Virus record (IMG/VR): IMGVR_UViG_3300037312_000330
Span: 64,001 to 128,000 of that record
DNA: 64,000 nt
Direction: 5' to 3' (one strand)
DNA from: a virus
Taxonomy: Duplodnaviria > Caudoviricetes
Within the stretch, counting starts at the first letter, position 1. The number at the start of each line of letters is the position of its first letter. The position numbers and the translations under genes are program-made. Shown piece by piece: positions 17,860-27,091 of the stretch. The notes under the pieces are model-generated. The model was given only the letters and a program-made list of their open reading frames with translations, did not search any database and had not been told where the DNA came from.

Positions 17860-18483
17860 TTAGGCAGCGTGGAAGGCCAGCGCTCCACCAATCTGTAGCC
17901 ACTTGCCAGCCGCAGTGTAGATGAACATCGTTGCGCCAACTTGGTTCGCTGTTCCAGCACCGTTAGCACCGGCCAGCGAGAAGTTAGAACCCCAAGTGAT
18001 TGTCCGACTGCCGGTTCCGTCCTGTGTGAACGTGAACACAAGGATCTTACCAACTGCGGCCTTCGTCGGATTCGCCACAGTGATGTTGCCGGTCAACGTT
18101 CCCACCGAGATGTGCGTCACAGCGTCACTAGCCGCTGGGGTGATCGTCGCCGCATACGCGATCGGAGTGCTGGACGGAGGAGCCAGACGACCACCAGCCG
18201 AGTTGTCAGAAATCGGCACCACGGCGTCGTCTTGAGCGATGACGAATCCGCCAGCACTCTTGACAGTGACGCGGAACGTGCTGTTGCCAGCACGGACGTA
18301 GCAATCGACTTGACCGTCGGAGTCCAGAGCGATAGCATTGCCTGTCAGTTGCTGCGTACCAGCAGCGTCAGCGTACAGACGCACCTTGTTGTTGGAACCT
18401 GTTTCCGTGATGTAGGCGGTTCCGACAGCAGGAGCGCCATTCACGGTAAAGCGACGTGTCAGTCGCAGAACTGGATAGCCCAT
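17860..18483 (-). CDS. Virion accessory or head-binding-like beta-rich protein
   Basis: LYADAAGTQQLTGNAIALDSDG resembles tailspike N-terminal head-binding segments; Gly/Ala/Thr-rich C-terminal domain; AGGA SD. Confidence 0.6.
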   Translation of the reverse strand: MGYPVLRLTRRFTVNGAPAVGTAYITETGSNNKVRLYADAAGTQQLTGNAIALDSDGQVDCYVRAGNSTFRVTVKSAGGFVIAQDDAVVPISDNSAGGRLAPPSSTPIAYAATITPAASDAVTHISVGTLTGNITVANPTKAAVGKILVFTFTQDGTGSRTITWGSNFSLAGANGAGTANQVGATMFIYTAAGKWLQIGGALAFHAA

Positions 18484-18586
18484 TGTGTGTTTTCCTATAG
18501 GATGGTTGATAAAGCAAGAGCGACTTGCATAATCAAACTAGCATGTGCCAGTATGAGAATAAATGGAACAAGGAACACCAACGAAC

Positions 18587-18594
18587 TGTAAATA
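18587..18594 (+). promoter_or_regulatory. TGTAAATA motif upstream of the group I-like RNA
   Basis: ACGAACTGTAAATAG, same 15-mer as the 50442 copy. Confidence 0.6.
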
Positions 18595-18599
18595 GGCAG

Positions 18600-25898: not shown

Positions 25899-26243
25899 AG
25901 TACAGCACAAGTTACGGAACCGCTTACTACAGTGGTGAAGTAGTTGAAATGCTCGCTGTCATGAACAGCAAACGACGTCACAGGATTTGGTTGCCGCCTT
26001 CGTGCTCGCGACCTACGTGCAGTGCTCGATATCGGGCCTTGATCTTCATGGTCAGCATAGATGCCGAGTCCAAAGTAACCTAGGTGAAACGGACACGCCG
26101 GAGCGAGTGGTTCGAATCCACAAAGTTCCTCCTTTGCTCGTGTCAGATCAAGATGACGATCTTGTTACTGGCGAGATGACCTCGCGGAATAGACGTGATA
26201 GCCAACCGAGTTGGTGACTTCCGGGAAAGACCGGACCAAACAT

Positions 26244-26347
26244 GGACCATTAGCGCAGTTGGTTAGCGCACGAACATGAAACGAGAGTACAGACCCTGCA
26301 AGCATCCTTTCAAGGGGTCACGGGTTCGAGTCCCGTATGGTCCGCCA
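26244..26347 (+). ncRNA. Asp-like tRNA body with the anticodon arm replaced by a 44-nt segment (pseudo-tRNA or tRNA mimic)
   Basis: Perfect acceptor GGACCAT/ATGGTCC, G73, CCA, intact D and T arms; 26271-26314 has no GTC anticodon or canonical stem. Confidence 0.75.
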
Positions 26348-26355
26348 GTTGTTGT

Positions 26356-26431
26356 TCCGTGGTAGCTCAGTAGGTAGAGCAAAGCACTGTTAATGCTTGG
26401 GTCGCTGGTTCGAGACCAGCCCACGGAGCCA
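26356..26431 (+). tRNA. trnN: tRNA-Asn (GTT)
   Basis: Cloverleaf, loop CTGTTAA, G73, CCA. Confidence 0.95.
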
Positions 26432-26458: not shown

Positions 26459-27091
26459 ATGGACTTCAGTGTGGAGACAGCAACTGGAAAGAGGACGATC
26501 AGTATCGTTCTTCCAGACAGGCCGTATGGAGTTTTGGTGTCAGGTGGCTTGGATAGCTCGGTGCTACTATCGCTAATCCTGATGACTCGTGCCAAAGAGA
26601 ACAGCACAGTTCCATTCACTGCCTTTAACATAAAGCGTGGTGTAGGAACAGAGCTTTTCTCTGAGAAGATGATGTGGTGGACAAGTGTCTACTTCAAGCA
26701 GGAATTCCCATTCCAACATTTGGAACTTCCTCCAGATACTCCACATTACGACTGTCTACGCATTCCTGGTGTATCACTTTTGAACGGTGGAAAAGTAGCC
26801 TGTCTGTTCTCAGCCGATACTTCTAACCCTCCAGGGTTTGTCCATCATCAAGCTCCAGAACGAACCCCTGTTGAGAAGCAGTTCAGCTTCCCACGGTGGC
26901 GTCTTCCGTTTCTGCACTGTGACAAGAGCCACATCGTACAATTGATGTACGACTTGAGACTCACGTTTATAGAACATCTGTCGCACACTTGCTTTGCGCA
27001 GAACATCTATAGATGTGGCAAGTGTTTCCAGTGCATGGAACGTGCGTGGGCATACAGCACTACTGGAAACTTGGACAGCGGAATACATTGA
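26459..27091 (+). CDS. QueC-like PP-loop ATP pyrophosphatase
   Basis: VLVSGGLDS PP-loop and C-terminal HTCF..RCGKCFQCMER zinc motif. Confidence 0.7.
   Translation: MDFSVETATGKRTISIVLPDRPYGVLVSGGLDSSVLLSLILMTRAKENSTVPFTAFNIKRGVGTELFSEKMMWWTSVYFKQEFPFQHLELPPDTPHYDCLRIPGVSLLNGGKVACLFSADTSNPPGFVHHQAPERTPVEKQFSFPRWRLPFLHCDKSHIVQLMYDLRLTFIEHLSHTCFAQNIYRCGKCFQCMERAWAYSTTGNLDSGIH

Follow-up and report, generated by a model that had tools for sequence, protein, structure and literature searches.

One gene in the tRNA array of a soil phage, at positions 26244-26347 of the window, keeps the body of a tRNA around a segment that has taken the place of the anticodon arm. The question it raises is whether such a gene is the relic of a tRNA, a tRNA that decodes by some unusual route, or an RNA with a role outside decoding. 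The source record is an IMG/VR virus of 248,884 bp from soil, a metagenomic contig rated complete by CheckV; by the window we mean the whole stretch of DNA that was analysed, which comprises bases 64001-128000 of that record (64,000 nt).

The setting is an array of 13 ordinary tRNA genes, found by ARAGORN and Rfam on the + strand between window positions 22526 and 26431 (isotypes Met, Glu, Pro, Val, Ala, Gln, two Ser, Gly, Trp, Thr, Arg and Asn), every one of which has an encoded CCA. Between them lie non-coding stretches and small ORFs, the latter including GroES, a truncated globin and a QueC-like PP-loop ATPase. According to ARAGORN, the phage has no ordinary gene for either tRNA-Asp or tRNA-Phe, and a tmRNA search with the same program found no tmRNA in the whole genome, the gene under study included. 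Eight nucleotides downstream of that gene begins tRNA-Asn(GTT) (26356-26431, +; ARAGORN and Rfam, 68.1 bits), directly followed by the QueC-like ATPase of 210 aa (26459-27091), which has an SGGxDS motif and a C-terminal CxxC...C, and matches Pfam QueC (E 4.8e-9) over its C-terminal 50 residues only. The array also holds a tRNA-Thr(TGT) of 83 nt (window 25336-25418), whose D arm (GGCAGAGCGGTCGAATGC) is type-II-like and whose variable loop has 10 nt. Among related phages, tRNA-Ile(TAT) genes with a long variable arm occur at lengths of 92-95 nt (L052:11861-11955, L006:18227-18318). At window 18400-19400, a candidate for a trans-acting group I ribozyme matched no Rfam family at E <= 0.01 under permissive filters.

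The tRNA frame and its origin

The gene reads GGACCAT-TA-GCGC-AGTTGGTTA-GCGC-A, followed by 44 nt and then by GGGTC-ACGGG-TTCGAGT-CCCGT-ATGGTCC-G-CCA. The Rfam tRNA model (RF00005) matches it from 26244 to 26344, scoring 45.3 bits where the gathering score is 29; over the 64-kb window this corresponds to an E of 2e-6. In this alignment the acceptor, D, variable and T regions are placed at high posterior, while the anticodon arm is represented by the pair 27:43 only, with 42 nt skipped. The 5' strand of the acceptor stem, GGACCAT (26244-26250, +), forms 7/7 Watson-Crick pairs with 26337-26343, and its 3' strand, ATGGTCC, together with the discriminator G73 and the encoded CCA, occupies 26337-26347 (+). 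The D arm (26253-26269, +) has 4/4 Watson-Crick pairs and a canonical D-loop, with A14, G18, G19 and A21 in place, and the T arm, ACGGG-TTCGAGT-CCCGT (26320-26336, +), has 5/5 pairs and a canonical T-loop that fits the consensus. All 16 pairs of the retained helices are thus Watson-Crick, a cleanness equalled among the 13 normal tRNAs by tRNA-Asn only. The tertiary core is complete (U8, A14, G15 with C48, G18, G19, A21, G46 and the T-loop), and the variable loop, GGGTC, is canonical. What the gene lacks of a canonical tRNA is a 5-bp anticodon stem carrying a 7-nt loop with U33 and a purine at 37.

The original prediction had described the acceptor stem, D arm, T arm, G73 and CCA as intact, and the alignment and the pairing bear this out. 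It had further argued that preservation of just these parts speaks against random decay. The frame is indeed intact; the argument is weaker than it appeared, because a single recent rearrangement would equally leave the frame untouched. An echo of permuted modules at 21692-22034 had also been proposed, and we looked for a link to these modules in sequence and in structure and found none.

That the gene is Asp-like, as had been suggested, applies to its 3' part. By BLAST, tRNA-Asp genes annotated in phages and enterobacteria match the 3' 37-42 nt (within positions 63-104 of the gene) at 82-88%. The 5' 26 nt, on the other hand, are identical at 25/26 positions to the 5' halves of Clostridia tRNA(CAU) genes, so that the isotype is assigned by the 3' half only. 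No parent tRNA in a host can be named from the Clostridia match, which consists of a generic D arm and the 7-nt acceptor strand, the 3' half having no genomic match. The gene has G73, G2-C71 and G10, which we take to fit Asp identity, along with an Asp-type variable loop and T arm; the anticodon GUC and C38 are missing. Its acceptor strand starts with GGACC, as does that of the tRNA-Asp of Erwinia phage Cronus. Adjacent genes for tRNA-Asp and tRNA-Asn are also found in Cronus, in phiKZ-like phages and in L045/L046. A normal tRNA-Asp(GTC) is present in most of the related jumbo phages that have arrays, in L045/L046 just upstream of tRNA-Asn, and in five related jumbo phages none was syntenic with the locus described here. 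Taken together, the 45.3-bit frame, the 3' match, the GGACC start and the position next to tRNA-Asn favour descent from a tRNA-Asp gene. It is unlikely that the gene is an attP, given that it contains both strands of the acceptor stem and that these pair.

Searches for a homologue gave no relative of the gene as a whole. Exact and gapped DNA patterns found none in IMG/VR, and a pattern of the D arm and T arm separated by a long middle gave 7 matches in JGI metagenomes, all of them unrelated. The 3' half had 0 matches in 185,579 GTDB species genomes. BLAST against GenBank phages (50,697 records, T5 included) returned eight short matches of tRNA-Asp type only, and against five related jumbo phages of 215-245 kb it returned nothing beyond tRNA fragments. 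The flanking genes were equally uninformative: the QueC-like protein has relatives, 54-66% identical, in other phage contigs, of which L005-L007 have them beside tRNA arrays and L003 does not, and no synteny via this gene was seen among L003-L008, L003 (59% identity) having neither another gene in common nor a tRNA. For the 121-aa ORF upstream no relatives were found. In the collections searched, then, the gene is a singleton, and this is to be read in the light of searches by exact patterns or BLAST, which diverged orthologues could escape when the closest neighbouring proteins are 54-66% identical. As a singleton, it does not allow selection to be demonstrated by comparison.

The replacement segment and other tRNA-like elements

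Where a tRNA has its 17-nt anticodon arm (positions 27-43), the gene has a non-canonical segment of 44 nt (26271-26314, +), which the Rfam alignment skips. It exceeds the normal arm by 27 nt and contains no GTC, just as had been noted. The lesion coincides exactly with one structural domain, and both strands of the anticodon stem are altered; a simple insertion therefore does not explain it. A second copy of the segment is absent from the 249-kb genome (no match longer than 11 nt), and on this ground we rule out a mobile element or a templated insert.

The segment shows no significant structure, with z = -0.47 for the segment alone and z = -1.56 for the whole gene. The minimum-energy and centroid folds both predict a 28-nt hairpin, GACCCU-GC-AAG-CAUC-CUU-UCAA-GGGGUC (26292-26319, +), in which the energy model gives the pairing of 26292-26297 with 26314-26319 probabilities of 0.81-0.98, mostly >= 0.95. 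This predicted hairpin would abut the T stem and absorb the variable-loop GGGTC (26315-26319), leaving ~21 nt single-stranded. Pairing of TGAAA with TTTCA, which the original prediction had offered as the most that the segment might form, is possible; as the main fold it is rejected, since it lies ~13 kcal/mol above the minimum-energy fold. In the spacer before tRNA-Thr, the sequence AGGATGCTTGC (window 25290-25300) is complementary, over 11 nt without a mismatch, to the apex of the predicted hairpin, GCAAGCATCCT (26298-26308). Such matches are expected ~0.04 times within the tRNA island, and the observation was made post hoc.

Within the segment lies the motif TGAAAC-GAG-AGTAC (26277-26290, +). 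It might fold into a weak hairpin whose tetraloop is C-GAGA-G, a structure that the energy model disfavours at a cost of ~7 kcal/mol. Searched for as TGAAAC-N1-4-AGTAC, the motif has two sites in the 249 kb, at 26277 and 24750, against a genome-wide expectation of ~0.5. Both are on the + strand, both have a spacing of N2-3, and both are inside tRNA-like elements of the island. This co-location is suggestive, and may be taken as a hint of function that was recognised post hoc. In IMG/VR, the motif together with a T arm did not recur.

The second site belongs to a tRNA-like remnant, E1 (24734-24798, +), which consists of an acceptor-like GTAGGG/CCCTAC, a linker (TGAAACACAGTACGT), a T-arm-like CTGGG-CGTGAAT-CCCGG and a GCCA tail end. 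E1 looks like a tRNA without its D arm and the 5' strand of its anticodon stem, and its fold is not significant (z = -0.77). If E1 is related to the gene, the relation would be through the common motif only. A further tRNA fragment is found in the island at 26084-26140, and fragments such as these two are to be expected in an array with gene turnover.

Relic or functional RNA

The reading that we prefer, with moderate confidence, is that the gene descends from a tRNA-Asp, has only recently ceased to decode, is still transcribed and processed, and persists as a pseudo-tRNA passenger. An ancestral tRNA-Asp gene would have occupied the Asp slot beside tRNA-Asn, and a single, recent rearrangement would probably have swapped its anticodon stem-loop (27-43) for 44 bases unrelated to it. 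Going by the rules of tRNA processing, the gene would most likely be co-transcribed with the tRNA array, after which an RNase P cut at G1 and trimming to the encoded CCA would yield a tRNA-shaped RNA of ~104 nt. That the transcript can be processed by RNase P and by 3'-end maturation is a reasonable inference, because the acceptor/T minihelix and the encoded CCA are kept and the gene lies inside a tRNA array. Its product would read no codon and would probably be charged poorly or not at all, as it has no anticodon loop and none of the anticodon identity elements used by AspRS.

Several lines of evidence favour a relic: the gene is a singleton, its insert is unstructured, the island contains other tRNA debris, the tRNA-Asp that this phage is missing is kept in its relatives, and no excision restores an anticodon arm (see below). 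Against it may be set the flawless frame, which equals that of the best working tRNA of the array, and the exactness of a swap at the level of one domain with both stem strands changed, as well as the motif common to E1. The relic reading is also weakened by the conservation in phages of tRNA-like RNAs without an anticodon, such as RNA1, RNA2 and RNA3 of T5, and by the chance that pattern and BLAST searches without a close relative overlooked diverged orthologues.

Typical pseudo-tRNAs offer a partial parallel. The 'tRNA-Other' genes of B. cereus (PMC3399842) are likewise tRNA-derived and non-translational and are found only at relaxed settings, and 'tRNA-Pseudo' calls occur in phage annotations, for example in that of Stenotrophomonas phage IME-SM1. 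The stems of typical pseudo-tRNAs, however, carry scattered mismatches, whereas the frame of the present gene is flawless and its lesion is in one domain.

Several of the points that weaken the relic reading lend some weight to a second explanation, which we consider possible and less probable than the first, namely that the gene encodes a functional, non-decoding, tRNA-like stable RNA. The frame would then be a scaffold for processing and stability that RNase P, the CCA enzyme and T-loop modifiers recognise, and the RNA would either display the 44-nt segment or bait readers of the acceptor end or elbow, such as host toxins directed at tRNA. A perfect frame with a complete tertiary core, a replacement that fits the domain boundaries exactly, an encoded CCA, a place within the array and a motif common to a second tRNA-like element of the island are all consistent with such an RNA. 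They are countered by the lack of any homologue in the collections searched, by an inserted segment without significant structure, and by the post hoc nature of the motif overlap (~0.5 sites expected and two seen). Nor was a partner protein found: the QueC-like neighbour occurs elsewhere without an adjacent tRNA (L003), and the phage has no Ro60/TROVE protein.

There is precedent for RNAs of this kind. In the GenBank record of T5 (AY543070), RNA1, RNA2 and RNA3 are annotated in the tRNA region as 'tRNA-like stable RNA with unknown functions'. Like the gene described here, these RNAs of T5 (and BF23) lie among phage tRNA genes and have an acceptor and T arm of tRNA type, with a longer non-decoding segment in place of the anticodon region, and RNA3 adjoins tRNA-Asn. 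The resemblance is architectural only, as BLAST and inspection show no sequence similarity. Unlike our gene, a singleton known from its sequence alone, the T5 RNAs recur in T5-like phages and are annotated as stable; the insert of RNA2 is well folded, whereas ours is not significantly structured.

A second precedent is the YrlA RNAs (RF02553), Y RNA-like, non-decoding RNAs of bacteria and phages with a tRNA-like elbow that mimic tRNA and are substrates of RNase P and of CCA addition (PMC4201824). What distinguishes YrlA from the present gene is a permuted tRNA-like domain, closed off by a stem that binds Ro60. We rejected membership of the YrlA family on the score, 23.4 bits against a gathering score of 69, for a match that spans the T arm of our gene and the D arm of the next tRNA; a search for a Ro60/TROVE domain in the phage found none.

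Conservation of an enlarged phage tRNA, which also speaks for a functional RNA, is seen in a family of 115-125-nt tRNA genes on 34 IMG/VR contigs (L043:227-342, L044:5820-5934, L082:564-682, L083:3162-3280(-) and 30 more, L080-L112), of which we found no description in print. Its members have a domain of ~40 nt between the D arm (GTGT-AAYGGTA-GCAC) and the anticodon arm, with an invariant hairpin, ATCCT-GNNA-AGGAT-AC, and a CAGCA box. In some members a helix of the insert covaries (GTATAT/ATATAC, GTATTA/TAATAC, GTAAA/TTTAC). Strong covariation is seen in the acceptor and T stems as well, with 63 cells changed on both sides, a number reached in 0/500 shuffles. The anticodon loops are varied (GUC, GAC, UAC, UGU), and some are of 8 nt, for example AUUCAUAA. 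Our gene is not a member of this family: the D arm, hairpin and CAGCA box are absent from it and from the whole phage, and its insert aligned with those of the family no better than shuffles did (p = 0.10-0.56).

A more specific version of the functional RNA, which we put forward tentatively and think rather doubtful, is that of a selected tRNA mimic. The acceptor, elbow and CCA would serve as substrate or bait for tRNA readers that do not depend on the anticodon, such as antiphage toxins or processing enzymes. The replaced arm would be a TGAAAC-loop-GUAC module with a C-GAGA-G tetraloop, common to E1, and the two elements would form part of a phage-specific set of non-decoding, tRNA-shaped RNAs. 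The original prediction had suggested a decoy for toxins, synthetases or stringent-response sensors, and none of the results obtained here favours such a role. AspRS depends on G34, U35, C36 and C38, and RelA needs a deacylated tRNA paired to the A-site codon. Both are unlikely targets of a decoy, because both require the anticodon that is missing; readers of the acceptor end or of the elbow are possible ones.

Decoding capacity and oversized tRNA genes

The original prediction held the gene to be non-decoding, and for any canonical reading the Rfam alignment, the enumeration of excisions and the energy model agree with it. At default settings ARAGORN does not call the gene. In intron mode (-i) it reports a tRNA-Phe(GAA) with a 25-nt intron, a model in which the anticodon stem has 3/5 pairs and the variable loop 7 nt. 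We enumerated all single excisions, allowing 0-2 nt at position 26 and a variable loop of 4-6 nt, and none restored a canonical anticodon arm, the best having 3/5 stem pairs. Group I and group II introns are ruled out by size, 25-44 nt being far too short, and no Rfam intron or ribozyme matched the segment. An intron is made unlikely, too, by the phage having no RtcB (PF01139), no tRNA-intron endonuclease (PF01974) and no Rnl2-type ligase (PF09414), in a search that covered the genes of the phage itself. With a best excision of 3/5 pairs and no phage splicing route, we reject the gene as an intron-bearing tRNA.

Decoding by any cryptic route, whether through an intron, as in the tRNA-Phe(GAA) with 25 nt removed, or as a type-II-like tRNA, seems to us improbable. 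In the type-II variant, CGAAC-AUGAAAC-GAGAG would make up the anticodon arm by way of tandem G.A pairs and 26292-26319 would be a long variable arm; its stem has 2 Watson-Crick pairs only, and the energy-model folds do not contain it. Something can be said for a cryptic decoder, in that ARAGORN does call the intron form, AUGAAAC offers U33 and A37, the phage has no tRNA-Phe, and in a related phage (L041) the intact anticodon stem of a tRNA-Thr(GGT)-like gene encloses a 55-nt insert. Moreover, very large phages are known to have oversized tRNAs with extra bases in the anticodon region: in Lak megaphages, tRNAs including a tRNA-Phe(GAA) have short introns described as 'enigmatic', whose splicing mechanism is unknown (bioRxiv 10.1101/356790). 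Once a Lak intron is removed, however, the tRNA is typable again, and the inserts are conserved from one genome to another, neither of which holds for our gene.

Two other oversized genes were seen in related phages. The tRNA-Thr(GGT)-like gene of the 231-kb phage (L041:11566-11690) has an anticodon stem TGCAG/CTGCA and, in the anticodon loop, a hairpin-forming insert of ~55 nt whose removal leaves TTGGTAC; the insert is a candidate for a short 'enigmatic' phage tRNA intron. In a 235-kb phage, a tRNA-shaped gene (L044:6319-6572) has perfect acceptor, D and T stems around a 204-nt middle, and might be a tRNA gene interrupted by a small intron that splices itself.

Finally, an error of assembly or sequencing, for instance a chimeric join inside a tRNA gene, would fit a metagenomic contig with a repeat-rich tRNA array, and is very improbable, given that the acceptor strands match perfectly, that the frame is continuous around the segment and that the genome offers no second copy of the 44 nt for mis-joining.

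Phage tRNA genes are now seen as counter-measures against host defences that cut tRNAs (e.g. PMC12445682). Such a role requires decoding. Taken alone, the gene adds little, being a singleton without comparative support, and its value would be much higher if orthologues or expression were to emerge. Non-decoding look-alikes of tRNA have been recognised in phage tRNA clusters since T4 and T5, and to our knowledge no function has been assigned to them so far. Clean examples, in which the arm is swapped and the frame is perfect, are candidates for probing whether such RNAs act as scaffolds, as bait or as regulators.
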